From a phage: 64,000 nt of DNA. Position 1 is the first letter of the stretch; each line of letters opens with the position of its first letter. The position numbers and the translations under genes were made by a program. Where the stretch lies: sequence record PQ374922.1. One strand, 5' to 3'. This document shows positions 1 to 19,578 of the stretch, in pieces. The notes under the pieces were generated by a model. That model was not told the DNA's origin, ran no database searches, and worked only from the letters and a program-made list of their open reading frames with translations.

Positions 1-666
1 AAACATTATCACCTGGAAAAGACTGAAATATGTGAAACTCAGGGTATCCAGTTGATCCACATCTGGGAAGATGAATGGGTTGAGAAACAGGAAGTGGTAA
101 AATCTCTTCTGAAAGCTAAACTTGGAATTAAAACGCCTGCGTCATATGCTCGCCAACACAAAGTCGTTTGGGGAAATATAAGCGGCTTGAGGGAGTTTTT
201 AGACAACCACCACATACAAGGTTCCGTTTCTTCCACCCACCATTTGTCGTTAATTGACAAGAGTGGGGCCATACAAGCCGTGATGCTATTCACTAAAAGG
301 AAAGATGGCCTGGAATTAGTCAGATTTGCCTCTAATGATTGCCACGGGGCATTCAGTAAACTTCTTTCACACTTCAGAAGAAAATTTACCGGCACCAAAA
401 TCTATTCCTTTGGGGATAGGTGTGTTGTAAGCAGGTTGTCCAACATTTACCTATCCCACGGATTCGTAGAAGAGGAAGTACAGAAGCCAGACTACAAATA
501 TCACAAGCCTGGCACATTTATGCGTGAGCACAAATTCGGTTTCAGAAAAGGTTCATTTGCTCGCATGGGGTATGACGTAGAAGGCAAAACAGAAAGCCAA
601 TTAGCAACCGAAGCCGGGTTGGTCAGGATTTGGAATTGTGGACTGATCAAATATGTCTTGAACTAA
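1..666 (+). CDS. hypothetical protein, 5'-truncated by window edge (C-terminal >=221 aa)
   Basis: Frame 1 is open from nt 1 to stop at 664-666; AT-richer codon usage than neighbouring genes; no catalytic motif recognised. Confidence 0.45.
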   Translation, partial: KHYHLEKTEICETQGIQLIHIWEDEWVEKQEVVKSLLKAKLGIKTPASYARQHKVVWGNISGLREFLDNHHIQGSVSSTHHLSLIDKSGAIQAVMLFTKRKDGLELVRFASNDCHGAFSKLLSHFRRKFTGTKIYSFGDRCVVSRLSNIYLSHGFVEEEVQKPDYKYHKPGTFMREHKFGFRKGSFARMGYDVEGKTESQLATEAGLVRIWNCGLIKYVLN

Positions 667-673
667 AAGAACA

Positions 674-721
674 TTTCAATAACGGGGCGAAAGGTATCAT
701 TACCCTCTCTATTAATCGAGG
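674..721 (+). repeat. promoter-like repeat element copy 1 (tttcaataacgggg...tattaatcgagg)
   Basis: ~48-bp element ~80% identical to copy at 935-982, each just upstream of a small ORF. Confidence 0.6.
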
Positions 722-729
722 AAATCGCA

Positions 730-930
730 ATGAGCCTGAAAGAAGATTCTGTAAACACCACAGTCGCCAACTCCACCTTCCGTGAGTGGCACGACGTATT
801 ATGTAAAGTCGCGAAAAGCCAGGGTGGTTCAGCCGCCGACGCCGACGCCTGGCGTGATGACTACGAAGCGGGCAAGACACCTCGCCAGTCTTGGGAAGAT
901 GAATGGGGTTGGGAAGAACAAGAAGGATAA
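730..930 (+). CDS. hypothetical small acidic protein (66 aa)
   Basis: ATG with upstream GAGG; preceded by ~48-bp promoter-like repeat element. Confidence 0.45.
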   Translation: MSLKEDSVNTTVANSTFREWHDVLCKVAKSQGGSAADADAWRDDYEAGKTPRQSWEDEWGWEEQEG

Positions 931-934
931 CAGT

Positions 935-982
935 TTTCAATAACGGGGTGAGAGGTATTATTGCCCCGTCTACTATCCGAGG
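935..982 (+). repeat. promoter-like repeat element copy 2
   Basis: See copy 1. Confidence 0.6.
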
Positions 983-990
983 GTTGTACC

Positions 991-1215
991 ATGTACTTGA
1001 AAAAGATCGTGAAGAAGCCGAAAGCCGGTGTTGCCGAGGTGCGCCTCATCGAGGTTTACGTTGATTCTTGTAACAATGAGCAGTGTTACTTCATGGTCGA
1101 CACGATGGTGTATGTGCCAGCCTCTCACCTGAACCGTGATTTCGTCACAACCGAAAATGTCGTCCGCTGGGAGATTGCAACGCAGTCCGATATCGACGAA
1201 CACAACATTCTTTGA
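991..1215 (+). CDS. hypothetical protein (74 aa)
   Basis: Internal ATG of ORF 961..1215 chosen; preceded by second copy of the promoter-like repeat. Confidence 0.4.
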   Translation: MYLKKIVKKPKAGVAEVRLIEVYVDSCNNEQCYFMVDTMVYVPASHLNRDFVTTENVVRWEIATQSDIDEHNIL

Positions 1216-1232
1216 AAGGAAGGATCTATATC

Positions 1233-1676
1233 ATGTGTAACAAGAATTTCATTTTCATTAGTCCCGCCAAGAAACAGTTCTTCCGTAGCTCCGTTGGGGA
1301 CAAGGTGGAAGGTTTCCGTAAATTCAAAGATTATCGCCTGGCATGTGGTGATGTTGATTTTCAGAGTTTCGACAATGATCGCCAGGATTTGAACGATGAG
1401 GGTTGGACAGAAGTTCCATCCCCTCAGTATATCCATATCAAGCTGTACTACATGAAGGACAGCGGGAAGTATTATTCTGAAGGTGAACTCGTCCTCAATC
1501 GTGGAGAGGCTGAAGCTGAACCTGCTAAGTCCTGGATGGACACTATGGATAAAATCCGATATCTACTCGACTCAGGCAATTTGCCCGGTTTGGTTAAAGG
1601 TGCCCGGTACGAGGTCTTCGTGACCGGAGAAGGGCATCCAGGTGGTTATCCACAACTGTTCCGCATTAACAACTGA
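1233..1676 (+). CDS. hypothetical protein (147 aa)
   Basis: ATG in conserved context ctatatcATG; ORF 1212..1676. Confidence 0.5.
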   Translation: MCNKNFIFISPAKKQFFRSSVGDKVEGFRKFKDYRLACGDVDFQSFDNDRQDLNDEGWTEVPSPQYIHIKLYYMKDSGKYYSEGELVLNRGEAEAEPAKSWMDTMDKIRYLLDSGNLPGLVKGARYEVFVTGEGHPGGYPQLFRINN

Positions 1677-1684
1677 GGTTAAAC

Positions 1685-1921
1685 ATGATTATCAAAAAGA
1701 TCGGCGCAAGTCCTCTCACTGGTACTATATTCCAGGGCAGGTTGAACACCAAAACCAGCATGTGGGTTGGTGAGAAGACCGACGTGACAGATGACTGCGT
1801 GGCAGCTGTAGCTGAACACTTGCGTCACATCAAGAAAGACTATTGCTTCCCAACGACGGATGGTAAGTTTCTGGTGCTGAGCGCCGAGGTTCACGACACC
1901 CTTCCTGATCGCTTCAAATAA
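1685..1921 (+). CDS. hypothetical protein (78 aa)
   Basis: ATG 5 nt after previous stop, upstream GAGG. Confidence 0.5.
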   Translation: MIIKKIGASPLTGTIFQGRLNTKTSMWVGEKTDVTDDCVAAVAEHLRHIKKDYCFPTTDGKFLVLSAEVHDTLPDRFK

Positions 1922-1969
1922 ATTTTAAATTTATTCAATAAACGGGGTTTAATTCTTCAATAAACCCCG

Positions 1970-1990
1970 TATACTTCATTCCATAAGCAG
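1970..1990 (+). repeat. exact 21-mer tatacttcattccataagcag (copy 1), contains -10-like TATACT
   Basis: Identical 21-mer at 37625-37645; both follow a hairpin. Confidence 0.8.
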
Positions 1991-2123
1991 CACAACACTG
2001 ACTCTGAAATGAAGGGACTATCACCAATCTCGTTACAAAGTAACATTGCAGCAATTTGTTCTAAACCTTTGAACAGGGTATGTTAACCGCATACCCTATC
2101 CCCTACAAATAGAGGACTTTACC

Positions 2124-2468
2124 ATGGCAGCAGACACCAAACTGAACAAATCCGTGGAGATCCCCCACATCGTCAAATTCGAAAAGCCGAGTGAGCGCAA
2201 GCCACGCAAAACGCGCCGCCTGGTCACCAAGCTGGATCTTCTGAAACAGAAGTTCGGCGACCACAGCGTGTTCACTCGCATTCGAAATGCAATAAAGGAA
2301 GGGCGAACTGAGCTGGAGCTATATCGACCGAACGGTTCGACACGCGCGTATCAGACCACTGACGGCTTACTGGAACTGATCCGCCTGAGCGGGATGACGA
2401 TCGAACCGCGTTCGTCAGGCACTCCTCTGTGCTCCCTGTACGTAATCGGCAATCTTGGGGCGCTGTGA
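2124..2468 (+). CDS. hypothetical basic protein (114 aa)
   Basis: ORF with AGGA upstream; Lys/Arg-rich N-terminal half. Confidence 0.5.
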   Translation: MAADTKLNKSVEIPHIVKFEKPSERKPRKTRRLVTKLDLLKQKFGDHSVFTRIRNAIKEGRTELELYRPNGSTRAYQTTDGLLELIRLSGMTIEPRSSGTPLCSLYVIGNLGAL

Positions 2469-2473
2469 GTTCT

Positions 2474-2896
2474 ATGAAGAAGTATATCGTTCTCATTACG
2501 GGTTCCCGCTCAATCACCGAGCGGGATAAGGTATTCGCCAAGCTGGACGAACTCCTCGATCCTCATGAGGTCTATACACTGATTGAGGGTGAAGCCTCTG
2601 GTGTGGACAAGATTTGCCGTGACTGGGCTGAAATCAATTATGTTCATATCACTCCTATGCCAATACCTCCGAGCTATTATGAAAAGTATGGGAAAGGGAT
2701 GGGCAACAAACGCAATCAGGACATGTTAGACAAGGCATTGGATCTCGTCAGGCAGACCAAGCTGGAAGTGTATCCGATTGCGATGTGGGATGGTTCGTCC
2801 ACTGGCACCCTGGACATGATCAACCGTTGCAAGAAAGCTGGCCTCCCTGTGGATATCACTCTAATGGGTAAGCCGAAGACCAAGCGCCTTTTGTAA
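2474..2896 (+). CDS. DUF2493-like SLOG-superfamily protein (predicted nucleotide-binding Rossmann fold)
   Basis: Motifs ITGSR, GEASGVDKICRDWAE, NKRNQDML, WDGSSTGTLDMINRCKKAGLPV match the pattern I recall for DUF2493/SLOG proteins. Confidence 0.5.
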   Translation: MKKYIVLITGSRSITERDKVFAKLDELLDPHEVYTLIEGEASGVDKICRDWAEINYVHITPMPIPPSYYEKYGKGMGNKRNQDMLDKALDLVRQTKLEVYPIAMWDGSSTGTLDMINRCKKAGLPVDITLMGKPKTKRLL

Positions 2897-2937
2897 CATA
2901 TCATAAATAATTTGAGTATACACAGCGGAGATACATC

Positions 2938-3108
2938 ATGTTTGTCGTCATCAATCTGTTCTGTTACATCTTCACGGCGTACTTCTTGGGCGCGGTAGGG
3001 ATTGAGACCTACAATGACCTGAAGGATGGGGAATACGCCAACCGAATGGTTTATGTCAAGAAGTTTGTTCGTAAGTTCTGGTCCAACTTCGTTTACAAAC
3101 TACCATGA
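2938..3108 (+). CDS. hypothetical small membrane protein (56 aa)
   Basis: Not in ORF track (<60 aa); ATG after GGAGA; hydrophobic N-terminus; stop overlaps next start (ATGA). Confidence 0.35.
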   Translation: MFVVINLFCYIFTAYFLGAVGIETYNDLKDGEYANRMVYVKKFVRKFWSNFVYKLP

Positions 3109-3875
3109 TCCCTAAATACCCCCATCATCCATGGGGGTATTTTCTTATGAACACACAGATCTATGACGCCCTATCACAGGGCAACGCCTTTACCAATCCT
3201 CTCCCGTCCCTCAGCAGCGCCTCACAGGGGTTAATCACCAGTGGTAAGGCGACTACAGCGTCACTGGCTAACACCGGAAATGCGCAGATTCAGGAAGCGC
3301 TGACGGCAGGTGGGTTGACTACAGCCAAACTCAACGAATCTACAGCAATGTTCAACTCAGCCAACAACAGCATCACTACTTTGAACAACTATGGCGACCA
3401 GTCAGTGAACGAGGCATATTCCCGCATCGGTACATCTGTGTCGTATAAGTCCGCCCTGAAGTCTATAGGTCGAGAACCGAACAACTGTGATCTGATCAAT
3501 AATGCATTTGGGGTTATTCAGAACCTCGGCAAACAGTGGATCAACACCATGCAAAGTGTTCTCACAACTATCACAAACAAGATGAATGAGCTGGCTGAGT
3601 TGGTAGCTCAGGGTGTCAGTGCTGGTCTTGATGCTATTCGGGCACTGGCTGCTGAAGTTACTCAAGCCATCGACACTGCTGTCGCATCAGTAGCCTCTAT
3701 TGCTCAGGACATCACGAACGGTATTGCAGCAGAGTTAGCCCATATCCAAGACATGGTTGGTAAGTGTCTTAACTTCTCTTTTGCCAACGTGATCTCAGAG
3801 TGGGCGAAAGATATCTGCGCCGGAGGTGTCATCAACAGCATTGGTTCCGATAATCTGAAGAACGCGCTGAAGTAA
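3105..3875 (+). CDS. hypothetical protein, Ala/Ser/Thr-rich (256 aa)
   Basis: Long ORF, alternative start at 3147; no motif recognised. Confidence 0.5.
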   Translation: MIPKYPHHPWGYFLMNTQIYDALSQGNAFTNPLPSLSSASQGLITSGKATTASLANTGNAQIQEALTAGGLTTAKLNESTAMFNSANNSITTLNNYGDQSVNEAYSRIGTSVSYKSALKSIGREPNNCDLINNAFGVIQNLGKQWINTMQSVLTTITNKMNELAELVAQGVSAGLDAIRALAAEVTQAIDTAVASVASIAQDITNGIAAELAHIQDMVGKCLNFSFANVISEWAKDICAGGVINSIGSDNLKNALK

Positions 3876-4283
3876 TCAGTGCTCCCGCGCCGGAAGAACT
3901 CCCACTGGTTCGATGCCATCCAACAGCAGGGAGTTCACACCCACATTACTCAGTCTGATCAAGATCGTTCCCCCTGGGTTAACTTCAAAGATACTCATCC
4001 CATTTCCAACCGCGTCGTTGTTAACGAACACACCCTGAGTTGCGATTCGTACTGGTTTATCTGAGTCATTCATGATCTTGAACGTCACGATTATATCTGA
4101 TGTTGTATCCAGTCGCCCAACCATGTGTTGCTTCAGCTTGGCATGGAATGATGGATTAAAAGTGATAATGATGCTGTTATTCTGAGAGTAATAAATACTT
4201 GCTGATAGGTATGGAATCTTCCCTTCATCGCCATGCCGCAGGAGAGGAATTGTGGTCTTCCAGTATGGCTTGAGGGTGCTCAT
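3876..4283 (-). CDS. hypothetical protein (start uncertain)
   Basis: Only long ORF over 3876-4250; C-terminal part looks protein-like, N-terminal extension to 4691 is Arg/Leu/Ser-rich and likely antisense artefact; no convincing RBS. Confidence 0.3.
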   Translation of the reverse strand: MSTLKPYWKTTIPLLRHGDEGKIPYLSASIYYSQNNSIIITFNPSFHAKLKQHMVGRLDTTSDIIVTFKIMNDSDKPVRIATQGVFVNNDAVGNGMSIFEVNPGGTILIRLSNVGVNSLLLDGIEPVGVLPAREH

Positions 4284-5067
4284 GTTCTCATCAAAGCAAC
4301 CTAAAGGTACGAGCTTCTGGAAGGGCTGGAACTCTTGCACGATGATGTCCAGCATACCCTTGTTACAAGTGGGAACGCTGGCCGACAACGTCACAGGTAC
4401 AGTGCGCACTTCTGGGTTCCAGAGTTCGGAAACAGAAATTATTGGCGTGACAAAGATGCGACAGCTCGTAAACAAGAGCATCGAGCATGCCAACAACAAT
4501 CTACTGATCCCGCGCATCAGGGTCACAAAATATCTCCACAGCAAAGGTGCTATTATGTCCAACGTACAATTTAAGAACGAAAACCCTAATTTCGCGGCGT
4601 CCGATAAGTGGCGTCTGACTATCGGAGACCTTGTACTCCTAACCCGTAACATCCACGACTTCAGTATACCAGGGGTGTACTCCGAAGGCATCGATGGTCC
4701 GTCTCCTGGTGACGTGTTGGTTTCTATACCTTCAGAGCGTTTAACCTATGATCCCGTCGTATTTACTTTCGTTATAGACGAGGACTGGAAATCATGGTTA
4801 CAGATCCACCAATGGATTACCAGCAACGTCGGCAAGGATTTGCCTGTCAGCAAGGACATTACCATTGAATTGCTGGATAACCTCAACCGACCGATTGGCC
4901 TCACTCTCGTGCTGGAGGAAGCCCGCCCGACTGCTTTGGACAACGTACTGGTGGACGTAGACGCAGCTGTACCTCAGCTGGTGACGACAGTGACCTTCAA
5001 GTTCCAACAGCTGGTTCCACTATCTGGTGGGAAGGCGATTGATTCTAATCCGCGAAATGCGGTATAA
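4252..5067 (+). CDS. hypothetical protein (271 aa from GTG; alternative ATG at 4555)
   Basis: GTG start preceded by AGGAGAGG at proper spacing; TAATAAATAC late-promoter-like element ~55 nt upstream. Confidence 0.45.
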   Translation: MVFQYGLRVLMFSSKQPKGTSFWKGWNSCTMMSSIPLLQVGTLADNVTGTVRTSGFQSSETEIIGVTKMRQLVNKSIEHANNNLLIPRIRVTKYLHSKGAIMSNVQFKNENPNFAASDKWRLTIGDLVLLTRNIHDFSIPGVYSEGIDGPSPGDVLVSIPSERLTYDPVVFTFVIDEDWKSWLQIHQWITSNVGKDLPVSKDITIELLDNLNRPIGLTLVLEEARPTALDNVLVDVDAAVPQLVTTVTFKFQQLVPLSGGKAIDSNPRNAV

Positions 5068-5097
5068 TTCTATGACATTGACAAGCTGGGATATTTT

Positions 5098-5550
5098 ATG
5101 AAAGAACAACTACAGACAATGGCTACCGAGGACATCATGAACGAACTGGAGCCGCTGATCACAGTGGACCCAGAAGACATGAACCTTGACCAGATCTCAC
5201 TGAAAATCGGGCGCTCTTGGATGGCTGTACAGCGGCATTATCTGCGCGAGGGGCGTTATCTTGAATTTCTCAACGGGCGCTTCCGCCAGATCGATCTCTA
5301 TCTGCGCCGCTACTATGCAGGGGAGTTACCCCCTAACATCTACGCAGAGCGCCCCCTGAAGGTTCGCCCCCTGAAGTCTGACCTAGATACATGGGTCAAA
5401 GCAGACGATGACTATGTGGAGTTGTCTGTTCTGTTACAAGAACAAAAAGCAAAAGTCAAGTTCATAGAGACTTGTTTGGATCGCCTGAACAAACTGGGAT
5501 ACGAAGTGAAAAATGCTATTGAGTGGAGAAAATATATTGATGGTGTATAA
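5098..5550 (+). CDS. possible UvsY-like recombination mediator (150 aa)
   Basis: Size, position next to UvsW-like helicase, and weak pattern similarity (RYYAG, acidic C-terminal helix) to T4 UvsY as recalled. Confidence 0.4.
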   Translation: MKEQLQTMATEDIMNELEPLITVDPEDMNLDQISLKIGRSWMAVQRHYLREGRYLEFLNGRFRQIDLYLRRYYAGELPPNIYAERPLKVRPLKSDLDTWVKADDDYVELSVLLQEQKAKVKFIETCLDRLNKLGYEVKNAIEWRKYIDGV

Positions 5551-5565
5551 CGAGGATCACACATA

Positions 5566-6312
5566 ATGGCATCCCTCCAAGATCTACGCAAGCTGAACGA
5601 CTTCGAAAACCGTCATTACACATTCCAGCAATACGAACTTCCTTACAAGGAACTGGAGTGTGTTACGACGGAGAATGGTCGTCATTACGTTTCACCGTCT
5701 GGTGTAAAACTGACATCCGTCACGACTATGCTGGGACGCACTGGAGATCATGAATGGCTTGAGTCTTGGAGGAAGAAGCTGGGCGCAGAGGCCGCTGACC
5801 TTGAGACCATGCGCTGTGCTGACCGAGGGGAGAAGCTGCACCTTGCGTGTGAACTGTATCTAAAGAACCGCCCAATGAAAGAAGTGTTGGAAGCGGCTGG
5901 CGAATACATGTTCATGTTCAAGCAGCTGTTCCCTTACCTGAACAAGATGACAAAGATCTATGCTCAGGAGATCCCATTATATAGCGAGGTGCTTGGTCTT
6001 GCAGGTCGTGTAGACCTTATCGGGGTTTATGAGGGTAAACCTGCTGTCATCGACTTCAAGACATCGAACACCATGAAGACGCGGGGCATGATCGAGGATT
6101 ACAGTATCCAGCTATGCTTATATTCGGTCATGTTCCAGCAGATGTTCGGCGTCAAGATCACCCGCCTCATCAACGTGATCGCCAACGAGTCTTCCCCTCT
6201 ACCAACCGTCATTGAGTTCAACCGTGATGACATTCTGACAAAGATGTTTGAGCGTGTTCGTCTGTATCATCGCATGGATAAAGAACAAAACGGAGTCTGG
6301 CCGGATCACTAA
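5566..6312 (+). CDS. PD-(D/E)xK family exonuclease (RecB/Cas4/lambda-exo-like)
   Basis: Motif GRVDLIGV...VIDFKTS (D...D/E.K core); AGGA RBS. Confidence 0.55.
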   Translation: MASLQDLRKLNDFENRHYTFQQYELPYKELECVTTENGRHYVSPSGVKLTSVTTMLGRTGDHEWLESWRKKLGAEAADLETMRCADRGEKLHLACELYLKNRPMKEVLEAAGEYMFMFKQLFPYLNKMTKIYAQEIPLYSEVLGLAGRVDLIGVYEGKPAVIDFKTSNTMKTRGMIEDYSIQLCLYSVMFQQMFGVKITRLINVIANESSPLPTVIEFNRDDILTKMFERVRLYHRMDKEQNGVWPDH

Positions 6313-6340
6313 ATACCCCATAATCCTTGGGAGATTTTGT

Positions 6341-7849
6341 ATGGTAGACATTCAGATTGTTAAGGTTAACGAAGTCCGCATGCGTTGCATCGCAGATCTT
6401 TCTATCAGGGAAGAACTTAATGACTACTTCAAATTCGAAGACCCGAACTTCGTTCCCAACCCCTTTTCTAAATGGGACGGGGTTGTCCGCCTATTTACCA
6501 AGTCATCTGGTCTAATCGATATCGGTCTGCTGTTTGAGGTATTTAAGTTCTGTAAGAACAACGGATACACCATTGAACTGGATCCGGCACTGAAGTACAT
6601 TCAGGACATCCCAGATGAAGAAATCCGTGACTTCATCGACAGTCTGCATCCAAAGATCCGCACCGAAAATCACGAATATATCGATGCCGAGACTCGTGAC
6701 TACCAGTACGACACCATCGCCAAGGCTATGCGTCAAACCAGATGCGTCTGTGAACTGGCTACGAGTGCCGGTAAGTCCTTTATTCTGTATGTCATGGCGC
6801 GGTACTACAGGCGGCGCAGAGAAGCTCTCGAAAGTCCTCTGAAGACGCTTATCGTGGTGCCGTCAATCCACCTAGTCACTCAGCTGTACGACAACTTCGA
6901 AGAGTATGCACATGGCAGTGATTGGAAGCCCGTTGTTAACACCCAGCTGATTTTTGAGGGCGCGACAAAGGATATCAGCAAACCAATCGTCATCAGTACA
7001 TGGCAAGGCATTCAAGACCAGCCGAAGGAATGGTTCCACCAGTTCGGTGATATCGTGGTGGATGAAGTGCACACCTCCAAGTCTGAGAAACTGTCTTACA
7101 TCCTAAACAACTGCATCTATGCCGACCAGCGCCTGGGGGTTACAGGTACGCTGGCGAATACCAAAGTTGCCGGGCTTCAGGTGGTGGCTCACTTCGGGGC
7201 GTACCATAAGATCATCACGGCTCGCGATCTTATCAATCTCGGGTACGCCACTGACATCAAAGTGAAGATGATCCAGCTGAAGCACACTCCGGCGGATGCT
7301 GTTGGTCTGGACGGGGATTATTCCAAGGAAATAGAATACCTTATCACACACCAGTCCCGCAACGAACTGATCGCCAAGATGGCACTGAATCTGAAAGGAA
7401 ACGTGGCCATCATGTTCGAACGTATTGATGGTCACATGATGGTCGTGTATGATATGCTGAGCGCGGTCAAGCCCAACGTGTTTGTCATCAACGGGGAAGT
7501 AAAGATCGAAGACCGCCGCCGCATACAGAAAGCGATGGAGGATGGAGAGGACATCACCCTGTTGGCATCATACGGGACAATGCAGCAGGGAGTGTCGATC
7601 AAGAAGCTACACCACCTTGTACTGGCACACCCGAGCAAGTCATATATCCGCGTCATACAGACATTGGGTCGTCTGATGCGTCAGCACTCCTCTAAGGACG
7701 TCGCGTGGATATGGGACTTAGTGGATGATGCATCGTACAACGCCAGCACGAACCACGCTCTTAGGCACTCTCACGAGCGTTACAAGTTTTACCTGGCAGA
7801 GCGCCACCCTGTGGAGTTCATGAAGGTGGCGCTGGGTAATCACGATTAA
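6341..7849 (+). CDS. uvsW: SF2 DNA helicase, UvsW-like
   Basis: Walker A ATSAGKS, DEVH box, helicase C-terminal motifs; start at internal ATG with GGGAGA RBS (ORF track starts at 6248). Confidence 0.7.
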   Translation: MVDIQIVKVNEVRMRCIADLSIREELNDYFKFEDPNFVPNPFSKWDGVVRLFTKSSGLIDIGLLFEVFKFCKNNGYTIELDPALKYIQDIPDEEIRDFIDSLHPKIRTENHEYIDAETRDYQYDTIAKAMRQTRCVCELATSAGKSFILYVMARYYRRRREALESPLKTLIVVPSIHLVTQLYDNFEEYAHGSDWKPVVNTQLIFEGATKDISKPIVISTWQGIQDQPKEWFHQFGDIVVDEVHTSKSEKLSYILNNCIYADQRLGVTGTLANTKVAGLQVVAHFGAYHKIITARDLINLGYATDIKVKMIQLKHTPADAVGLDGDYSKEIEYLITHQSRNELIAKMALNLKGNVAIMFERIDGHMMVVYDMLSAVKPNVFVINGEVKIEDRRRIQKAMEDGEDITLLASYGTMQQGVSIKKLHHLVLAHPSKSYIRVIQTLGRLMRQHSSKDVAWIWDLVDDASYNASTNHALRHSHERYKFYLAERHPVEFMKVALGNHD

Positions 7850-8217
7850 TCTTGATTCACATAGGCGGGGGTGGCCTCGCCTTCATCAGTTACTACACCG
7901 AACAATTTGTCCAGAGAAGCCAGACATTGTGCGTTCAGGTGTTCACTGATCGTATCCTTCAGCATTTGTTCGCTGTTCAATTGGAATGGCAGAACCTTCG
8001 CTTCGATGCCGTTATCAAACGTCACAACGCCAACATACAGACCAACTTTCAGGCCTGTCATCAAGCCAAGGGGGACAAATCGCGGCTCCGATGGTAAGTT
8101 CTTGTCTGACGCCAGCTGTGTCAGATAAACTGGGGTGCCTGTGATAAATTGACCTGTGGTGAGGTTGGCGTCTGGCTTACTACACCCGACTGCGTATAAT
8201 CCTACGAACTGTTTCAT
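7846..8217 (-). CDS. hypothetical small protein, possible lipoprotein
   Basis: Minus-strand ORF with GAGAG RBS; N-terminus MKQFVGLYAVGC resembles a short lipobox; convergent with uvsW. Confidence 0.45.
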   Translation of the reverse strand: MKQFVGLYAVGCSKPDANLTTGQFITGTPVYLTQLASDKNLPSEPRFVPLGLMTGLKVGLYVGVVTFDNGIEAKVLPFQLNSEQMLKDTISEHLNAQCLASLDKLFGVVTDEGEATPAYVNQD

Positions 8218-11254: not shown

Positions 11255-12127
11255 ATGACAACTACATTTTCCAAGAACGTGAATCTGAATCTGGCTTTCG
11301 GTAATGCAAAGGGCGACGTCACATCGCCCGACTTTGGTAAGATCCGCAATCAGGCGAAACTGGTGCTGGAAGAAACCCGTGAACTGCTGGAAGCGGCGTA
11401 TTTCGACCACGAGGTGAAAATTGAGTTCACTGCATCTCCGCGAGTCCTGAAAGAACCCGTTGTTGTCGACATCAAAGACATTATGCGCCAGATCATGGAT
11501 GCTCAGGGCGACATCACAACAGTCAACGACGGCGTGGCTCATATTGCTGGTTTCGACGGTGACGAATGCCTACAGCGCGTGTATGCCTCTAACATGAGCA
11601 AGTTCATCCGTAATGAAGGTGAAGTTGTGCCAGCACTGGATTACTACTACAACAAAGGATTCCCACGCGAAAGTCTACGCATCGAAGGGGAATTCCCTCA
11701 GGCGTGCATCAAAGTGGTAGACACCATCACCGTCGACGGCAAAGAATACCCGGCTGGCAAGTTCCTGAAGAACATGGCAACCTTCAAAGAGCCTGACTTC
11801 TCTGATATGTTGACCGCCGAGCCTAAGCGCCAGATCACCGAAATCATTCTGACAGGTACGGCTACCCCAGGTCGACTCGGATGCAACGAACACGCTGGTG
11901 TTGCCTACGCACCGTTCGATTTTATTGACGAGATCGTGGGATACACCAAGATGGGCTTCCAGGCGTTCTCTGGCGAAACAGTCGAGAGCTACATTCCCGT
12001 GTTTGTTTTCAATGAAGACAACTTCCCAACTCTACCGTTGATCTGGGGTGAATGGAAAGCCAACGTCCGTATCTATGTGGCCAGCCCAGTGCAATCATCT
12101 ATCACCCAACTGACCCGTATCGATTAA
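11255..12127 (+). CDS. hypothetical protein (290 aa)
   Basis: Occupies the slot where T4 has DNA polymerase; optimal codon usage; no polymerase motifs. Confidence 0.6.
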   Translation: MTTTFSKNVNLNLAFGNAKGDVTSPDFGKIRNQAKLVLEETRELLEAAYFDHEVKIEFTASPRVLKEPVVVDIKDIMRQIMDAQGDITTVNDGVAHIAGFDGDECLQRVYASNMSKFIRNEGEVVPALDYYYNKGFPRESLRIEGEFPQACIKVVDTITVDGKEYPAGKFLKNMATFKEPDFSDMLTAEPKRQITEIILTGTATPGRLGCNEHAGVAYAPFDFIDEIVGYTKMGFQAFSGETVESYIPVFVFNEDNFPTLPLIWGEWKANVRIYVASPVQSSITQLTRID

Positions 12128-12149
12128 GATATACAGTTGTTCACTAAAC

Positions 12150-12177
12150 AACAGAGGCTATAATGGCCTCTGTTTTC
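12150..12177 (+). terminator. terminator hairpin with TATAAT in loop
   Basis: cagaggc-TATAATg-gcctctg followed by ttttcg. Confidence 0.55.
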
Positions 12178-12195
12178 GTATTCTAAGAGGATACC

Positions 12196-13416
12196 ATGAA
12201 AGATAAAGCCCTGGACGTCCCGTACTGCGGTGTCCGTGAAGAAAAGATAAAGTCGGCCAAACCGGTTCTCAGTCCGACCCATACCTGCCTGTCTTACGAA
12301 TGGATGCGCGATCGTTATCAGATCCACGTCAAGAAGGACGTCCAGCGCCTTCCTGCTCCTTGGACTGATAATCCCATATTACGGCAGGTCAAGTTCTGTA
12401 ACGTCCGGAGAGAGCACGACAGGCAGTCTCTCAACCTGATCAACAACATCGTCAACAACGATGCTCTGGGTATGGCCGACAAGATGTTCAACTGCGTGTT
12501 GTTCCGCATGTTCAACCTCTGGGATCCAATCCAGGCTATCGGCGGCGCGATGACGATCAAAGAATTCGCCGAGATCAACCTCGATGCAACCCGCGAACGA
12601 CTTAAGAAGTTCGAGGCCGACGGCGGTAAGGTATTCACCAATGCCTTCAACACGGGCGGCCTGAAACAATGCCTGGCTTTCCCTGAGATGGTTGTCAACC
12701 ACAAGGAGCAGCGCTTCGGTGGGATGATGGTGAATCTGATCTGTAAAGATGGTTCAACCCAGAACATGGATTATAAAGAAGCCAAGGCGATAGCCGAAGC
12801 AGAACCGGACTTCTACACCATCGAAGGTTGGGAACCGTACATGCCAATGCGTGTCATCCGCTCCCTGAAGGCATTCGTCAACAAGTATCCAAATTACTTC
12901 CATGACCTGCTGCGCCTTGGTACTCCTTTGGAAGTATACCAGCGCATGTACGACGACATCGAAGGGCTTGGTCCATTCCTGGCCTATCAGATCTGGGTAG
13001 ACTTCACTTACATTCCTGAATATCCTTTCAGTGAGAACCACTTCACGGTTGCTGGACCAGGCTGTCGCGCAGGGATCGACCTGATGTTCCAGGACAAAGA
13101 TGGCATGACGCATGAAGAATGCATCTTCTGGTTGCGGGACAATCAGGACGCGGTTTATGGCCCTCTTGGGTATAACAGGGAAGAATTTTGGTCTGCGGAA
13201 GAGCCTTGGGATCAGTGTATGAATGTGATGAGCATCGAGAATATGGCATGTGAATTGTCGAAATATACTCGTTGTGTAGAGGCCATACAGCAAGGTAAAA
13301 AACCGCGCGGGAAGGTTGGATATGACGGCGGTGGGGAATACAAAAAGCGCTGTGATGAAGTCGTGCTCAAACGTGGTTCCGTCAATTTGCTGGACCGTTT
13401 GAAGAAACCTGAATAA
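12196..13416 (+). CDS. hypothetical protein (406 aa), candidate nucleic-acid modification enzyme
   Basis: Long ORF after terminator-promoter hairpin; no motif confidently recognised. Confidence 0.6.
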   Translation: MKDKALDVPYCGVREEKIKSAKPVLSPTHTCLSYEWMRDRYQIHVKKDVQRLPAPWTDNPILRQVKFCNVRREHDRQSLNLINNIVNNDALGMADKMFNCVLFRMFNLWDPIQAIGGAMTIKEFAEINLDATRERLKKFEADGGKVFTNAFNTGGLKQCLAFPEMVVNHKEQRFGGMMVNLICKDGSTQNMDYKEAKAIAEAEPDFYTIEGWEPYMPMRVIRSLKAFVNKYPNYFHDLLRLGTPLEVYQRMYDDIEGLGPFLAYQIWVDFTYIPEYPFSENHFTVAGPGCRAGIDLMFQDKDGMTHEECIFWLRDNQDAVYGPLGYNREEFWSAEEPWDQCMNVMSIENMACELSKYTRCVEAIQQGKKPRGKVGYDGGGEYKKRCDEVVLKRGSVNLLDRLKKPE

Positions 13417-13530
13417 AGATTCCCTTTACTTCGTTCTTCAATAACTCAATCCAGCGTATATTGACCTCACTTAAACGAAGCGCCCTGGCAAACGGGGCGC
13501 ACATTTGAACTGAAACAGGAAGATTACACC

Positions 13531-15549
13531 ATGTCAGATTTTAAGCCCTTCGCAGTAGCTGTCAACAATAACGTGCTGGCCATGTCAGCAACTGGTCTGT
13601 TCATGACCAACATCGATAAAGATGCTCTGTGGGATCTGTATCTGTCTTCTTTCCCTGCTGGCACTAACCCGCTTTATCGTGAGCGTACCGAGCACGACTG
13701 TACCTGCTGCAAACAATTCATCCGTAACATCGGCGGTGTAGTCACCATCGACTCCGATCTGAACGTGATCTCTATCTGGGATAACATTCAGCTGGGTAAC
13801 GAATACGACGTTGTCGCTGCGGCGCTGTCAGCATATGTTAAGCAGCACGCAATCGTCGACGTGTACTTCAACGACACCAAGAAAGTTGGTGTTGAATCGA
13901 ATCACGAAATGAAAGACGGTATTGTCCGCACCTACAACCACTTCCACACCGACCTGCTGGGCAGCTATGTTCTGCGGGCAGATACCATCGCTTCTAAGAA
14001 GGGTGAAATCCGCCAGGCGATTGAAGTGTTTGAGCGCGGCCTGCGTGAACTGTCTCTGGAATCGGCTGAAATCGTTCTGGAATTGATCGACCAGAATTCT
14101 CTGTATCGCGGTGAAGAGCACAAAGCGGCAGTGCAGGCGTTCGTGGTGAACAAGACCCTGTACGAACAAACTGCAGAAGAGAAACGCGCTCTGTGGGCTT
14201 GGCGCACTGGCTACCGTGCAAACGGTCATACCCCTCACGGCATTCGTAATACCGTGATTGGCTCTCTGCTGGTAGACCTCAATGAAGGCCGGGATCTGGA
14301 AACCGCCGTGAAGTCCTTTGAAGCCAAAGTCGCTCCGACGAACTACAAGCGCCCAACCGCGCTGGTCACGAAATCCATGATTGAAAACGCGCAGAAAGAA
14401 GTCGAAGCGCTGGGTCTGACTGATTCACTGGGTCGCCGTTATGCCGTGTATGACGATCTGACCATCAACAACGTTCTGTTCGCCGACCTAGCAGCTCAGA
14501 AGAAGATGGACCCGTTTGCTCAGCTGGCGTCTGAAGTGAAGACTCCGACCAAGTCCCTGGACAAGGTTGAAGAGATCACGATCGACGACTTCCTGACCAA
14601 CGTGTTGCCAAAGGCGCATTCCCTGGAAGTGCTGGTCGAAAACTCTCACATTGGCAACCTGATGTCCCTGATCGCTCCGGCCACCGCAGGCGCTCCTAAC
14701 CTGTTCAAGTGGAACAACGGCTTCAGCTGGTCGTACAATGGCGAAGTGGCCGACTCCATCAAAGAGCGCGTGAAGACCGCAGGCGGCAATGTCGACAGCT
14801 TCCTCCGTGTGTCACTGGCTTGGCATAACAACGACGACCTGGATCTGAGCCTGAACGATCCTCTTCACAACCACGTGTATTATCACAACCGTCGTTCGAC
14901 AACTGGCGCAACTCTAGACATCGACATGAACGGTATGGACGGCATTGATCCAAACCGCCGTCCGGTGGAGAACATCTTCTTCAGCGATGAACGCAAGCTG
15001 CGTGATGGTCTGTACGAGTTCTATGTCACTAACTTCAGCCAGCGTGAAACCTGTGATATGGGCTTCGAAATCGAAGTTGAATACAAAGGCCAGACCAAGC
15101 GTTTTTCGCATCCTGGCCTGAAGCACAAAGATCGCACTCTGGCTGTTGTGATTGATGTCCGCGCTGGACAAGTGGTAGACATCCGTTCTACCCTGAAAGA
15201 CGACGCTCGCTCTCAGGAAATCTGGGGCATCAAGACCTCCGTCTTCCAGAAGGTACAGCTGGTTCTGAACTCACCAAACCATTGGGACGGCGAGCAGACT
15301 GGCAACAAGCACGTGTTCTTCATCCTGGAAGGTTGTGCTAACCCTGTCGGCACCCGTGGTTTCTATAACGAATATCTGAAGCCGGAACTTGATAAACACC
15401 GCAAGGTTTTTGAAATGTTAGGTGGTAAGATTAAAGTACAGCCAAGCACTGAGCAGCTGTCCGGTCTGGGCTTCTCTACCACCCAACGCAACCACGTGTT
15501 CGTGAAGGTGAGCGGTTCGTTCAACCGCACTGTGAAAGTTGTGTTCTAA
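13531..15549 (+). CDS. hypothetical protein (672 aa), highly codon-optimised
   Basis: Long ORF with strongly E. coli-optimal codons; no Walker or polymerase motifs seen. Confidence 0.65.
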   Translation: MSDFKPFAVAVNNNVLAMSATGLFMTNIDKDALWDLYLSSFPAGTNPLYRERTEHDCTCCKQFIRNIGGVVTIDSDLNVISIWDNIQLGNEYDVVAAALSAYVKQHAIVDVYFNDTKKVGVESNHEMKDGIVRTYNHFHTDLLGSYVLRADTIASKKGEIRQAIEVFERGLRELSLESAEIVLELIDQNSLYRGEEHKAAVQAFVVNKTLYEQTAEEKRALWAWRTGYRANGHTPHGIRNTVIGSLLVDLNEGRDLETAVKSFEAKVAPTNYKRPTALVTKSMIENAQKEVEALGLTDSLGRRYAVYDDLTINNVLFADLAAQKKMDPFAQLASEVKTPTKSLDKVEEITIDDFLTNVLPKAHSLEVLVENSHIGNLMSLIAPATAGAPNLFKWNNGFSWSYNGEVADSIKERVKTAGGNVDSFLRVSLAWHNNDDLDLSLNDPLHNHVYYHNRRSTTGATLDIDMNGMDGIDPNRRPVENIFFSDERKLRDGLYEFYVTNFSQRETCDMGFEIEVEYKGQTKRFSHPGLKHKDRTLAVVIDVRAGQVVDIRSTLKDDARSQEIWGIKTSVFQKVQLVLNSPNHWDGEQTGNKHVFFILEGCANPVGTRGFYNEYLKPELDKHRKVFEMLGGKIKVQPSTEQLSGLGFSTTQRNHVFVKVSGSFNRTVKVVF

Positions 15550-15593
15550 ACCTGATTTGAAATTGTAACCCATTCATCATTGAGGATAGTAAA

Positions 15594-15965
15594 ATGTTTG
15601 ATAAAGCAACCCGTATGAAACTGCGCTTCGAGTCTAACAAAGGTCTGCTGTCTGTTGAGCAGGTCTGGGACCTGAGCCTGACTGCCCTGAACGAAATGGC
15701 GAAAGGTCTGAGCCGTCAGGTGAAAGCAGCAGAAACCGATGAAGAAGATTTCATTGGTACCAAAAGCAACGTTGACTCCGAACTGCAGCTGCGCTTCGAC
15801 GTTGTCAAGCACATCATCGGCGTTAAGCTGAAAGAACGTGACGACAGCAGAGAAGCGGCAGAGCGTAAGGCGAACAACCAGGTTATCCTGGAGCTGATCC
15901 AGCGTAAGAAACAGCAAGAGCTGGAAAGCAAATCTGTTGAAGAACTGGAAGCGCTGCTGAAATAA
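15594..15965 (+). CDS. hypothetical charged alpha-helical protein (123 aa)
   Basis: AGGA RBS; followed by strong rho-independent terminator. Confidence 0.55.
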   Translation: MFDKATRMKLRFESNKGLLSVEQVWDLSLTALNEMAKGLSRQVKAAETDEEDFIGTKSNVDSELQLRFDVVKHIIGVKLKERDDSREAAERKANNQVILELIQRKKQQELESKSVEELEALLK

Positions 15966-15987
15966 CCCTGTTGGCCTCGGCCTGAGC

Positions 15988-16016
15988 AACCCCGCCATGT
16001 GCGGGGTTTCTTTTGG
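15988..16016 (+). terminator. rho-independent terminator
   Basis: aaccccgc-catgt-gcggggtt followed by tcttttgg. Confidence 0.7.
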
Positions 16017-16025
16017 ACAAAGAAT

Positions 16026-17062: not shown

Positions 17063-17917
17063 ATGTTTCGTTTGAAATTGAACGACCAAGATGTGTTCTA
17101 CAAACACTTCACCTTCCCAGGTGGTGAGGAACATATCAAGATTCAAAAGTCTGGTATCCCTATCGGCCACGTTCAGAACGTGGCGATTGATGCTCACATC
17201 AAATCATCGGCTGACTTCATTGAGCTGGCGCTTCTGGTAAACGCCGTTCGTGGTCTGGGTAACGTGGACCGTCTGACGACATTCCATGCGTATATCCCTT
17301 ACTTCCCGTATGCTCGCCAGGACCGCCATTGTGACTTCGGTGAGCCTCTGTCTGTGAAGTGGGCGGCTGAGTTCATCAATAGCATGAACTTTGACCGCGT
17401 GGCGATCAAAGATCCTCACAGCCATGTTGTGTCTTCTCTGATCAACAACGTCCATGTTGTCCCGCAAGATTACATCGTGCGTCAGTATCTGGGCTGGTTC
17501 ATCCGTGGGAACAACGCTGTGTTGGTAGCCCCTGACGGCGGCGCGGCTAAGAAGACCGAAGCCCTCAGTCTGTCGTTGGACGGTGTTCCTGTTGTCTACG
17601 GTCACAAGAACCGTGACACCAAGACTGGTGAGATCATTGGGGTGAGTATTACGAACCCTGAACTGATCAAAGACCGCTATCTGGTGGTGGTCGATGATAT
17701 CTGCGACGGTGGGCGCACGTTCGTTGAGTTAGGCAAAGAGCTTCAGAAGCACAAGCCTAAGCACATGACGCTCTTCGTTACCCATGGCATCTTCAGCAAA
17801 GGTCTCTCTGTTTTCGACGGGATCTATGATGCTGTGTATGCCGACACTGTCTGGTGGGAGAACATCACCGCCGACGGGCTTCCTTTCAAAACTGAAAATA
17901 CAGGACGTGTAAAATGA
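17063..17917 (+). CDS. ribose-phosphate pyrophosphokinase (PRPP synthetase) family; Prs or ADP-ribose pyrophosphokinase (Adps)-like
   Basis: IPYFPYARQDR and PRPP-binding VVVDDICDGGRTF motifs; 284 aa, shorter than cellular Prs. Confidence 0.85.
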   Translation: MFRLKLNDQDVFYKHFTFPGGEEHIKIQKSGIPIGHVQNVAIDAHIKSSADFIELALLVNAVRGLGNVDRLTTFHAYIPYFPYARQDRHCDFGEPLSVKWAAEFINSMNFDRVAIKDPHSHVVSSLINNVHVVPQDYIVRQYLGWFIRGNNAVLVAPDGGAAKKTEALSLSLDGVPVVYGHKNRDTKTGEIIGVSITNPELIKDRYLVVVDDICDGGRTFVELGKELQKHKPKHMTLFVTHGIFSKGLSVFDGIYDAVYADTVWWENITADGLPFKTENTGRVK

Positions 17918-19578
17918 GCATGCGCCACTTAGACCCAATCCATGCGATCGACTTCTACAAATCGGGGCACATCTATCAGTTCCCTGAAGGCAGTGAGCTG
18001 GTGTTCTCCAACGGAACTCCGCGCTCTAACAAACTGTTCAACTCTCACCTGCCGAAGAACGGCGTGGTGGTCTGGGGCATCCAGGGCTTCATGACCTGGT
18101 TCCACGAACTGTTTGACGAAGCATTCTTCCAGCGCCCGAAGGCCAAGGTGCTGAAGAAGTATGCCCGTCGCATGAACAAAGTCCTGGGTCCAGGCCGCGT
18201 CGGCACAGAGCATATTGAAGCCCTGCATGACCTCGGCTACCTGCCTATCGAAGTCCGTGCGCTGCCTGAAGGCACCATGTGTCCGTATGGCGTTCCGGTG
18301 TATGTGATGTTCAATACCCTGCCGGAGTTCTACTGGCTGACCAACTATCTGGAGACTGTGTTCAGCTCTGAGATCTGGAAGCCGATGACGAACGCCACCA
18401 TAGCTCTGCATTACAAGGCACTGATGGTGAAAGCTGCCCTCGCTACGGGAGTATCACCAGACCATTGGTTCATCGACTACCAAGGTCACGACTTCTCCTT
18501 CCGTGGTATGAGCGGGTGGCATGACGCCGCGTCTTCCGGTTCCGGTCATCTGGTGTTCTTCAAAGGCACCGACACCAACCCTGCCCTGGACTTCGTAGAA
18601 GAGTATTATGGCGCAGACATCGACGAAGACTATGTCGTTGCTGGGTCGGTTGCCGCAACGGAACATGCGGTGATGTGTATGGGCACGAAGGATGGTGAAT
18701 TCGAAACCTTCCGCCGCCTGGTGCAGGACGTGTATCCTGATGGCATCGTCAGCATCGTGTCTGATGCGTGGGATTACTGGCAGGTCATCGACGACTATCT
18801 GCCTCGCCTGAAAGACATTATCATGGCGCGCAATGGTAAAGTCGTGATCCGCCCCGACTCGGGCGACCCTGTACACATCGTCGGCGGCTACCGCATCGAG
18901 GGGTTCAAAGACCGCGCTACGCTGAACATCAGCGGCGTGTCTAGCAGCACCGAAGTTATCCACATCGAAGAGACGAACACCTATCACCTGATCACAGGCG
19001 AAGGCACGATCAACTCTCTGATGGCAGATGACCGTAATATCATCAGCCGTTCAGAAGCGGTCGGCTCTATCCAGCGCCTGTGGGAGATCTTTGGTGGCAC
19101 CCAGACTGAAACTGGGCACTTCCTGTTGGATGAGCACATCGGCCTGATCTACGGTGATTCTATCACCCTGGCGCGTGAAGACCAGATCTTTAGCCGTCTG
19201 GCTGACCGGAACTTCGCTTCCATCAACGTGGTGTTCGGTATCGGTTCCTACACCTACCAGATGAACACCCGTGACAGTACTGGCACAGCAGTGAAAGCCA
19301 CGGCTGGTAAAGTGAACGGTGAATTCCGTGAGATCTTCAAAGAGCCGAAGACCGATAAAGGCGGGACTAAAAAGTCTGCGCGTGGTTTCCTTAAAGTCAT
19401 TAAAGACCCTCAGGGTAAACTAGTGTTGGTTGACGGTATCACTTTTGATCAGGTGCAAGACGCCGACAACCAGCACCAGCTGGTGTATCGTGATGGCGAG
19501 TTCTTCAATACTCAAACACTGGAAGATGCGCGTGTTCGTGCTGCTCCTCTGGTGACGGAACTGGCATCACAAATCTGA
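17914..19578 (+). CDS. nicotinamide phosphoribosyltransferase family (NadV/NAMPT or Namat-like)
   Basis: 554-aa ORF translationally coupled to Prs-like gene (ATGA overlap); recognised as NAMPT-type phosphoribosyltransferase by overall sequence pattern. Confidence 0.8.
   Translation: MSMRHLDPIHAIDFYKSGHIYQFPEGSELVFSNGTPRSNKLFNSHLPKNGVVVWGIQGFMTWFHELFDEAFFQRPKAKVLKKYARRMNKVLGPGRVGTEHIEALHDLGYLPIEVRALPEGTMCPYGVPVYVMFNTLPEFYWLTNYLETVFSSEIWKPMTNATIALHYKALMVKAALATGVSPDHWFIDYQGHDFSFRGMSGWHDAASSGSGHLVFFKGTDTNPALDFVEEYYGADIDEDYVVAGSVAATEHAVMCMGTKDGEFETFRRLVQDVYPDGIVSIVSDAWDYWQVIDDYLPRLKDIIMARNGKVVIRPDSGDPVHIVGGYRIEGFKDRATLNISGVSSSTEVIHIEETNTYHLITGEGTINSLMADDRNIISRSEAVGSIQRLWEIFGGTQTETGHFLLDEHIGLIYGDSITLAREDQIFSRLADRNFASINVVFGIGSYTYQMNTRDSTGTAVKATAGKVNGEFREIFKEPKTDKGGTKKSARGFLKVIKDPQGKLVLVDGITFDQVQDADNQHQLVYRDGEFFNTQTLEDARVRAAPLVTELASQI

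Follow-up and report, generated by a model that had tools for sequence, protein, structure and literature searches.

A stand-alone SLOG protein of the YAcAr family in Ackermannviridae, possibly a DprA-like accessory factor of phage replication or recombination

We analysed a stretch of phage DNA of 64,000 nucleotides (PQ374922.1; hereafter the window), in which an ATG-to-TAA open reading frame (ORF) at 2474..2896 of the plus strand encodes a protein of 140 amino acids. By family profile and structural model this protein is a bona fide PF10686/YAcAr member within the SLOG (Smf/DprA-LOG) superfamily, and our first choice, held tentatively and with somewhat less than even confidence, is that it assists replication or recombination as a DprA-like accessory factor that binds nucleic acid. 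On balance the evidence slightly favours such a role on phage DNA over the mopping up of alarm signals, and the margin between these first two readings is small. A longer ORF with a GTG start from 2429 is also listed for the gene; we place the start at ATG 2474 because the upstream gene runs to 2468 and orthologues show conservation starting with MKK. The gene and the elements of its product on which the argument leans are the following.

2474..2896, plus strand: stand-alone SLOG (PF10686/YAcAr) coding sequence, stop codon included, recognised from the ORF list, Pfam, the AlphaFold2 model and SLOG-fold matches
2501..2509, plus strand: G10-S11-R12 loop after strand 1, counterpart of DprA motif 1 (G50-R52 of Helicobacter pylori DprA, HpDprA)
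2588..2608, plus strand: G39-E-A-S-G-V-D45 (GxAxGxD) pocket helix motif, which aligns to DprA SGxAxGxD
2702..2725, plus strand: G77-N-K-R80-N81-Q-D-M84 motif, whose R-N probably corresponds to R143-N144 of DprA motif 2 (register by motif)
2786..2818, plus strand: W105-D-G-S-S-T-G111-T112-L-D-M115 loop, in the register of LOG PGGxGTxxE and aligned by HMMER to the DprA SDGT segment
2867..2893, plus strand: C-terminal tail G-K-P-K-T-K-R-L-L, basic, disordered by prediction and confined to the Ackermannviridae clade

Pfam gives PF10686, YAcAr (formerly DUF2493), as the sole match of the protein (E=3.6e-11, 43.2 bits, residues 5-58; the curated gathering cut-off is 28.2 bits), and the family is carried by all of its 34 close homologues, fragments excepted. 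The Pfam entry spells YAcAr out as 'YspA, cpYpsA-related SLOG family'. The PHROGs match is phrog_289 (E=1e-39), and single-sequence searches of NCBIfam, PADLOC and PDB sequences returned no match. YAcAr was reportedly defined by Burroughs et al. in 2015. The AlphaFold2 model, made with an input alignment of 25 homologues, is a five-strand alpha/beta sandwich (predicted local distance difference test, pLDDT, 92.9; predicted template modelling score, pTM, 0.86) in which only the final ten residues are poorly defined (tail pLDDT ~56). When this model was searched with Foldseek, DprA and the single-stranded DNA (ssDNA)-binding ShosA ranked first, and YpsA, LOG-like proteins, TRPM2 and ThsA-SLOG were also among the top structural matches; the fold is Rossmannoid and three-layered, with SLOG members as its best structural neighbours. 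A first-pass annotation, made from the DNA letters, had identified the protein as a stand-alone DUF2493/SLOG-type protein of 140 residues; the assignment is borne out by a Pfam score above the cut-off, a high-confidence SLOG-fold model and structural matches headed by DprA and ShosA, and the ORF does encode a single domain.

The DprA-like reading draws on remote sequence similarity and on individual residues. A profile of 82 diverse family members, run against all PDB sequences, found DprA as its sole match (E 0.004-0.007), and YAcAr relatives give PF02481 (DprA) matches of 20-28 bits, below the cut-off of 29.6; in the HMMER alignment G10-S11-R12 falls on HpDprA G50-T51-R52 and the SxGT loop on DprA SDGT. 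Wang et al. define DprA by the ssDNA-binding motifs G-S/T/A-R and F/L/Y-x-x-R-N/D, and report that R52, R143 and N144 of HpDprA hold one flipped-in ssDNA base, with R52 as the ssDNA gate, and that ssDNA binding is lowered 315-fold by R52E and 173-fold by R143E (PMC3950713). Conservation was scored in two sets, 25 close homologues (the clade) and the 82 diverse members (family-wide), and the counterparts of these three residues, R12, R80 and N81, are invariant or nearly so. The family-wide invariant residues G10, G39, G43, D45, R80, N81 and G111 are all present here, and those nearly invariant are R12 (kept in at least 90% of the 82), A41, an aromatic at 69, A76, G77, M84, S109 and T112. G10-S11-R12 as well as S109, G111, T112 and M115 are invariant in the clade, and WDGxSxGTxxM is common in the family. 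The protein possesses each of the family-wide motifs GSR, GxAxGxD, AGxxRNxxM and (W)DGxSxGT, and the conserved residues all lie at the C-terminal ends of strands, which is the classical SLOG pocket. DprA motif 1 is present in full as G10-S11-R12; motif 2, placed by motif and not by structural alignment, is only half present because the aromatic at position -3 is replaced by an invariant Gly ahead of the invariant R80-N81. The tail has the consensus G-K-P-K-T/S-K-R-L-L/I, with K135, K137 and R138 invariant in the clade; it is kept down to ~37% identity and is absent from the wider family, and with it the isoelectric point (pI) of the protein is 8.8, against 6.1 without it.

From these features we infer a nucleic-acid ligand, an absence of catalysis, a role for the tail and the machinery that the protein might serve. 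The SLOG pocket would grip one nucleotide unit of single-stranded nucleic acid, similar to the DprA Rossmann domain, and the KPKTKRLL tail would add a second, electrostatic contact or act as a docking peptide. Made, on our reading, from one small operon together with a translationally coupled partner, the protein would have no catalytic activity and would assist or mediate the work of the phage's helicases and recombination proteins (UvsX/UvsY/UvsW, Dda-type helicases); it would not be a LOG-type enzyme. Compared with DprA/Smf itself (PF02481; H. pylori 4LJR, S. pneumoniae 3UQZ), the phage protein has half the size of the DprA domain and is a single domain of five strands without DprA's SAM and winged-helix domains and extended nine-strand sheet, and Pfam returned no PF02481 match for it at E<=1. 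Because it scores below the PF02481 threshold, lacks these extra domains and has motif 2 in part, we do not count it as a DprA-family member. By analogy it may work like the DprA Rossmann domain; the basic tail is the phage clade's own feature, and ssDNA binding is predicted from this likeness.

Additional support for a DNA-linked role comes from the genes and domains with which relatives are associated. YAcAr is fused to the superfamily 1B (SF1B) helicase HelB in Vibrio phage ICP1, likewise in a Pseudoalteromonas phage, and to the DciA helicase operator in Streptomyces. Iyer et al. describe fusions to helix-turn-helix (HTH), HNH, exonuclease, SF1 helicase and guanylate kinase domains, and also to Macro, NADAR and DUF4326 (PMC9503650). 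The C-terminal DUF2493 domain of ICP1 HelB and the mycobacteriophage 'DprA-like DNA processing chain A' proteins (L5 gp61 type) belong to the same Pfam family as the phage protein and resemble it in their recurrent link to helicases and replication modules; they differ in having 27-35% identity to it and no KPKTKRLL tail, and the ICP1 version is fused. Individual phages place the gene as follows.

VH7D: SLOG gene directly before the Dda helicase gene
FZ14: SLOG gene directly after the DNA polymerase gene, stop and start overlapping
pW4: SLOG gene after helicase and primase genes
Sixama: SLOG gene between RuvC and helicase genes, within PolI...Cas4-RecA
382E49-1: SLOG gene after SF3 helicase and C5 methylase genes
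Klebsiella RCIP0046: SLOG gene after the RNA polymerase gene
Mycobacteriophage Dixon: SLOG gene adjoining a phosphoribosyltransferase gene, near DnaB
SeppeHuegi and pAh6-C: SLOG gene among hypothetical genes

We also took a census of 200 first and second neighbours at 57 non-redundant IMG/VR viral loci, for which related loci were sought with a 22-sequence sub-alignment. No dominant partner gene appeared in it; the commonest identifiable class was DNA replication, recombination and nucleotide metabolism (ResIII/DEAD, DnaB, UvrD, topoisomerase, gyrase, ribonucleotide reductase (RNR), PolA, Prim-Pol, UvsY, thymidylate synthases and ParB). NAD+/ADP-ribose chemistry accounts for a smaller group that also recurs (Nudix twice, NAPRTase/NAMPT, NADAR, DUF4326 and cREC), and one Acb3 gene (PF25187) was seen. 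Among single loci, Dixon gp74-gp73 (L003 3248-4363) pairs a phosphoribosyltransferase with a 'DprA-like' SLOG protein, which is the domain pair of the ShosT toxin and ShosA antitoxin of the ShosTA defence system. IMG/VR contigs further hold a reverse transcriptase-YAcAr fusion of 470 amino acids (L086 3969-5381; a partial one lies in L042 4512-5366) and, directly ahead of a SLOG gene, the gene of a portal-NUDIX-phosphoribosyltransferase protein (L014 863-3607).

Several observations weigh against a DprA-like role. With a pI of 6.1 when the tail is left out, the domain core is acidic to neutral rather than basic; the SAM and winged-helix domains and the dimerisation elements of DprA are missing, and an invariant Gly takes the place of the aromatic platform (F140) in DprA motif 2. 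The neighbour argument is weakened because small non-structural phage genes sit in replication modules by default, and some relatives are fused to or lie beside NADAR, DUF4326, Nudix, Nampt and cREC domains. The describers of the family moreover read its helicase fusions as sensor-regulated enzymes (PMC9503650), and since the SLOG domain of ThsA bound no DNA in electrophoretic mobility shift assays (PMC7272460), SLOG domains are not DNA binders by default.

The same pocket invites comparison with the LOG phosphoribohydrolases (PF03641), which carry a catalytic Glu in the PGGxGTxxE motif. At this position the phage protein has Met115, invariant in the clade, the adjacent D114 varies as D/H/N across the family, and there is no PF03641 match. 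Since the catalytic Glu is absent and D114 is variable, we regard a LOG-type phosphoribohydrolase as unlikely. A related proposal, that the protein is a nucleotide-pool enzyme, a LOG-like N-glycosidase or phosphoribohydrolase degrading a (deoxy)nucleoside monophosphate, possibly to bias pools for the 5-hydroxymethyldeoxyuridine (5-hmdU)-based thymidine hypermodification of Ackermannviridae DNA, strikes us as very improbable for these reasons. Genes that would fit it do exist, namely the hypermodification genes of the window (the 5-hmdU DNA kinase at 12196..13413 and a MazG-like gene) and the thymidylate synthase, RNR, deoxycytidine monophosphate (dCMP) deaminase and phosphoribosyltransferase genes found beside relatives. 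However, the SLOG gene belongs to another operon, 8 kb away from the hypermodification gene cluster, and many phages in which thymidine is not modified, mycobacteriophages for example, also carry members of the family; membership in the hypermodification pathway was set aside on these two points. The cluster itself spans 11255-16436 on the plus strand.

11255-12124, plus strand: MazG-like gene
12196-13413, plus strand: 5-hmdU DNA kinase, PF18723
13531-15549, plus strand: uncharacterised 672-residue protein
15999-16436, plus strand: DUF3268 zinc-finger protein

How the gene is distributed bears on several of the readings. A profile search of 1.84 billion cluster representatives gave 26,197 YAcAr relatives at E<=1e-3, most of them stand-alone proteins of 115-150 amino acids. 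By tblastn a relative is present in 957 of 50,697 phage records, with carriers among mycobacteriophages (296), the Ackermannviridae of Salmonella, Klebsiella, Escherichia and Dickeya, large Vibrio myoviruses, Bacillus, Streptomyces and Gordonia phages and a halovirus, and at the same threshold in 6 of 72,556 plasmids. Judged from these counts, the protein is one further member of a very large, phage-centred family, which at that sensitivity is no typical gene of plasmid leading regions. Orthologues of the ACKERMANNVIRIDAE clade at >=60% identity occur in ~266 phage records. Positions 1-8000 of the window have 100% identity to Escherichia phage YX22 (Agtrevirus) and 90-98% to other Agtreviruses, so that the first-pass view of the gene as phage-encoded holds, and by this comparison the window is an Agtrevirus genome (Ackermannviridae, Aglimvirinae); the base composition of the SLOG gene is like that of its surroundings.

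Local gene order is identical in Agtrevirus, Kuttervirus (where the gene is CBA120 orf174), Klebsiella Ackermannviridae and Miltonvirus (Serratia Kevin): partner, SLOG, small ORF, DUF7217, DUF7424 (on the opposite strand), gp3 tail completion, UvsY, PD-(D/E)XK exonuclease and UvsW, with UvsY, the exonuclease and UvsW lying 2.2-3.4 kb downstream of the SLOG gene, a vicinity that we count in favour of a DNA-linked role. Protein identities to the window are as follows.

SLOG protein: Kuttervirus CBA120 77%, Klebsiella phage 62%, Miltonvirus Serratia Kevin 48%
gp3 (structural): CBA120 78%, Klebsiella phage 72%, Serratia Kevin 66%
Upstream partner: CBA120 70%, Klebsiella phage 28%, Serratia Kevin 21%
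DUF7217 protein: CBA120 60%, Klebsiella phage 54%, Serratia Kevin 43%

By these comparisons the SLOG gene is a syntenic core gene of the whole Ackermannviridae family, and across genera it is conserved to about the degree of the structural protein gp3; we count this, too, for the DprA-like reading. The virion protein gp215 of Kuttervirus Sajous1, labelled 'molybdate-binding', was considered as a SLOG protein mislabelled by Phyre and rejected, as it belongs to another locus and adjoins a primase gene.

The labels attached to this region need some care. Within phrog_289 (500 positions) the SLOG protein aligns to 20-146 and the downstream DUF7217 protein of 242 amino acids to 250-500, and the two halves are matched separately both in the window (2474-2896 and 3147-3875) and in another locus (L001 4754-5176 and 5385-6155). 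We considered phrog_289 as a SLOG-DUF7217 fusion and rejected this; since all 25 DUF7217 homologues are stand-alone, we treat it as a chimeric cluster. The label 'GTP-binding domain-containing protein' is put on both genes because each matches one phrog_289 half. We consider that label an artefact, as a P-loop is absent from both proteins and a fusion of the two was not found.

Seven small plus-strand genes, the SLOG gene among them, form a cluster, for which we list the following elements.

675..700, plus strand: promoter motif TTCAAT-N14-TATCAT (sigma70-like, of the Ackermannviridae type), which heads the small-gene cluster
936..961, plus strand: second promoter motif, TTCAAT-N14-TATTAT
1942..1970, plus strand: perfect 10-bp hairpin (-14.2 kcal/mol, z -4.3) without a U-run, in the 203-nt gap upstream of the partner gene
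2124..2468, plus strand: upstream partner of 114 amino acids, phrog_4663, no Pfam family, with a small alpha/beta domain behind a basic, disordered N-terminus
2938..3108, plus strand: downstream ORF of 56 amino acids with a hydrophobic N-terminus, phrog_4845, the last operon gene, syntenic in CBA120 and Serratia Kevin
3112..3147, plus strand: CTAAATACCCC motif contained in a hairpin of 12 bp (-17.2 kcal/mol) with a U-run behind it, directly past the last small gene

The paper on the Agtrevirus EspM4VN describes TTCAAT[N14]TATAAT and CTAAATAcCcc as 'unique regulatory motifs' (PMC7283392). TTCAAT-N14-TATNAT has four exact matches in the 64 kb against 0.03 expected (675-700, 936-961, 47046-47071 and 56638-56663, all plus strand), and the two copies that precede the small-gene cluster, at 675 and 936, also hold a GGGG...CCCC inverted repeat in their spacer. 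CTAAATACCCC has six matches with at most one mismatch in the window against 0.47 expected, with exact plus-strand copies at 3112, just upstream of DUF7217, and at 6309-6319, just upstream of UvsW. These Ackermannviridae motifs were used in place of the T4 late promoter TATAAATA, which is not enriched in the window. We read 675-3147 as one putative operon with sigma70-like promoters, closed by the hairpin at 3112 and flanked by late genes, and we read the 3112-3147 hairpin as a probable terminator of this operon that overlaps a putative late promoter of DUF7217; the hairpin at 1942-1970 may be an attenuator or a processing site. Given this operon reading, 'early or middle' expression of the SLOG gene is plausible. 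The gene had been placed in an early-gene region, and of this there stands a 2.4-kb island with two TTCAAT-N14-TATNAT motifs and a terminator-like hairpin; the island itself is flanked by late genes. At the place of the non-coding 203-nt gap (1921-2124), CBA120 and MK-13 carry an additional small ORF or two. The C-terminal part of an HNH homing endonuclease (52-666, plus strand, phrog_3339), located between the major capsid gene and the cluster, is a mobile insertion, as it is present in vB_CECAV_050 and absent in MK-13.

The gene for the 114-residue partner ends 5 nt ahead of the SLOG start, with a 4-nt overlap instead in the phages of Klebsiella and Serratia, on which grounds we read the two genes as a translationally coupled, conserved pair. 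Both products have basic tails, which is in keeping with a DNA-linked role. A short basic motif is common to the partner (ERKPRKTRRLV, 2199-2225, plus strand) and the SLOG tail (GKPKTKRLL, 2870-2893, plus strand); KPRKTRRLV and KPKTKRLL are the only two six-frame matches to this motif in the 64 kb; it is semi-conserved in the partner orthologues of Agtrevirus and Kuttervirus, and those of Klebsiella and Serratia phages lack it. We leave the shared motif unexplained and do not use it as evidence. The strict conservation and coupling of the pair would also suit a ligand-sensing regulatory subunit that senses NAD+, ADP-ribose (ADPR) or another nucleotide and switches the partner, a helicase or a nuclease. 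Such a sensor has been proposed for the helicase, HNH and exonuclease fusions by the describers of the family (PMC9503650), and the fusion of YAcAr to DNA-metabolism enzymes, together with a pocket that the loss of the LOG Glu suggests to be non-catalytic, points the same way. However, we found no evidence for a ligand, and by sequence this proposal is inseparable from both the DprA-like reading and signal interference; we consider it improbable.

The remaining alternative is that the SLOG pocket sponges an ADP-ribose-derived or cyclic messenger, or cleaves its N-glycosidic bond, and so blunts host signalling immunity; candidate messengers are 2'/3' cyclic ADP-ribose (2'/3'cADPR), His-ADPR, N7-cADPR and the products of cyclic-oligonucleotide-based antiphage signalling systems (CBASS). 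We rank this second, a little below the DprA-like reading and above a sensor. A sequestering or processing role of this kind had been offered in the first-pass annotation, and it is already published as a prediction and is not new: Iyer et al. in 2022 explicitly predicted for the YpsA-like SLOG domains of viruses a role in degrading or sensing cADPR-type signals, and noted that in that role SLOG domains 'remain experimentally uncharacterized' (PMC9503650). A search of the literature brought up no later experimental work on a YAcAr protein of a phage. The idea gains from family fusions to NADAR and DUF4326 (one protein, P0081, joins NADAR, three YAcAr domains and DUF4326) and from the Nudix, Nampt/NAPRTase, cREC, NADAR and single Acb3 genes among the neighbours of relatives, including a nicotinamide mononucleotide (NMN) adenylyltransferase/Nudix gene 3.8 kb from the SLOG gene in VH7D; a YAcAr-NADAR fusion also lies on IMG/VR viral contig L054 (4932-5801). 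The sigma70-like phage promoters of the operon would be compatible with early expression. The known substrate of NADAR, reported in work on DarT1/NADAR, is ADP-ribosylated guanine in ssDNA, and the argument from NADAR fusions is weakened because they would fit a DNA-targeting module as well.

That this phage is pressed by NAD+-based defences is evident from a second locus, because it carries a two-gene operon of Prs and Nampt type at 17063..19578, and we count this in favour of signal interference. The two plus-strand genes overlap by 4 nt and encode a Prs-like protein (284 amino acids, PF13793+PF00156) and a Nampt/NAPRTase-family protein (554 amino acids, PF04095), a make-up that makes the operon a candidate NARP1-type pair; NARP1 (Adps+Namat) rebuilds NAD+ and defeats Thoeris I, DSR1/2, SIR2-HerA and SEFIR. 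The operon is present in 90 phage records and absent at the same spot in the close relative vB_CECAV_050. Accessory genes of counter-defence are usually patchy in this way; the SLOG gene, by contrast, is a universal, slowly evolving core gene in fixed synteny, and this counts against interference with a messenger. The operon of the window has 98.6% identity to YX22 and 99.0% to phage LHE287, and set beside the identity over positions 1-8000 this suggests that the source genome is either a mosaic or a different isolate.

Further points count against signal interference. The family occurs in phages of Actinobacteria, Firmicutes, Proteobacteria and Archaea, a range wider than that of any one signalling system. 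Neither Pfam, including the inhibitor family Acb3 (PF25187), nor PADLOC places the protein among the described inhibitors of signalling immunity (Tad, Acb and others); Pfam gives only PF10686 and no PADLOC model matches. To our knowledge a conserved disordered basic tail such as that of this clade is no feature of known sponges. The SLOG domain of ThsA (STALD; 7UXS, 3'cADPR-bound) is SIR2-fused and belongs to a different SLOG family, unlike the stand-alone phage protein, which is no closer to ThsA than to DprA, LOG or TRPM2 and in which no ThsA-specific residues were identified. No SIR2, TIR or transmembrane effector is fused to it or present in the operon, whose neighbours are small uncharacterised proteins, DUF7217 and gp3, and for want of an effector we do not regard it as a ThsA-type sensor. 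YpsA, a bacterial cell-division regulator of unproven ligand, belongs to another Pfam family (DUF1273 in its PDB title), and the 82-member profile search of PDB sequences found no similarity to it. Anti-defence by sequestering or processing a signal is therefore a legitimate idea that the NADAR, DUF4326, Nudix and Nampt links keep alive in a minority of relatives; for this protein we found no specific support, and the sole sequence match to DprA, the retained ssDNA-binding residues, the core-gene status and the replication-type neighbours tell against it. The narrower claim that an immune messenger derived from ADP-ribose is bound or cleaved by the universal Ackermannviridae protein, on its own or together with its partner, seems to us slightly less probable again.

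A specialist would find only the clade-specific tail and the coupled partner surprising, as the protein is otherwise an ordinary member of a known family. That family, DUF2493/YAcAr, is however among the larger phage-associated families of no assayed function, and incompatible labels for it are in circulation, 'DprA-like DNA processing protein' on the one hand and 'SLOG sensor or degrader of ADP-ribose signals' on the other. The Ackermannviridae version offers a handy test case, being a single small domain with a mutable pocket and tail that is universal in a phage family used in therapy and biocontrol. If the immune-messenger reading were true, this conserved core protein would be the first of the SLOG fold through which anti-defence could be studied experimentally, and a family with >26,000 sequence clusters, present in ~2% of sequenced phages, would gain a function. 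Settling the ligand would re-annotate thousands of genes, and would decide whether phages possess a minimal DprA-type cofactor of recombination and helicases or a new signal-interfering class.

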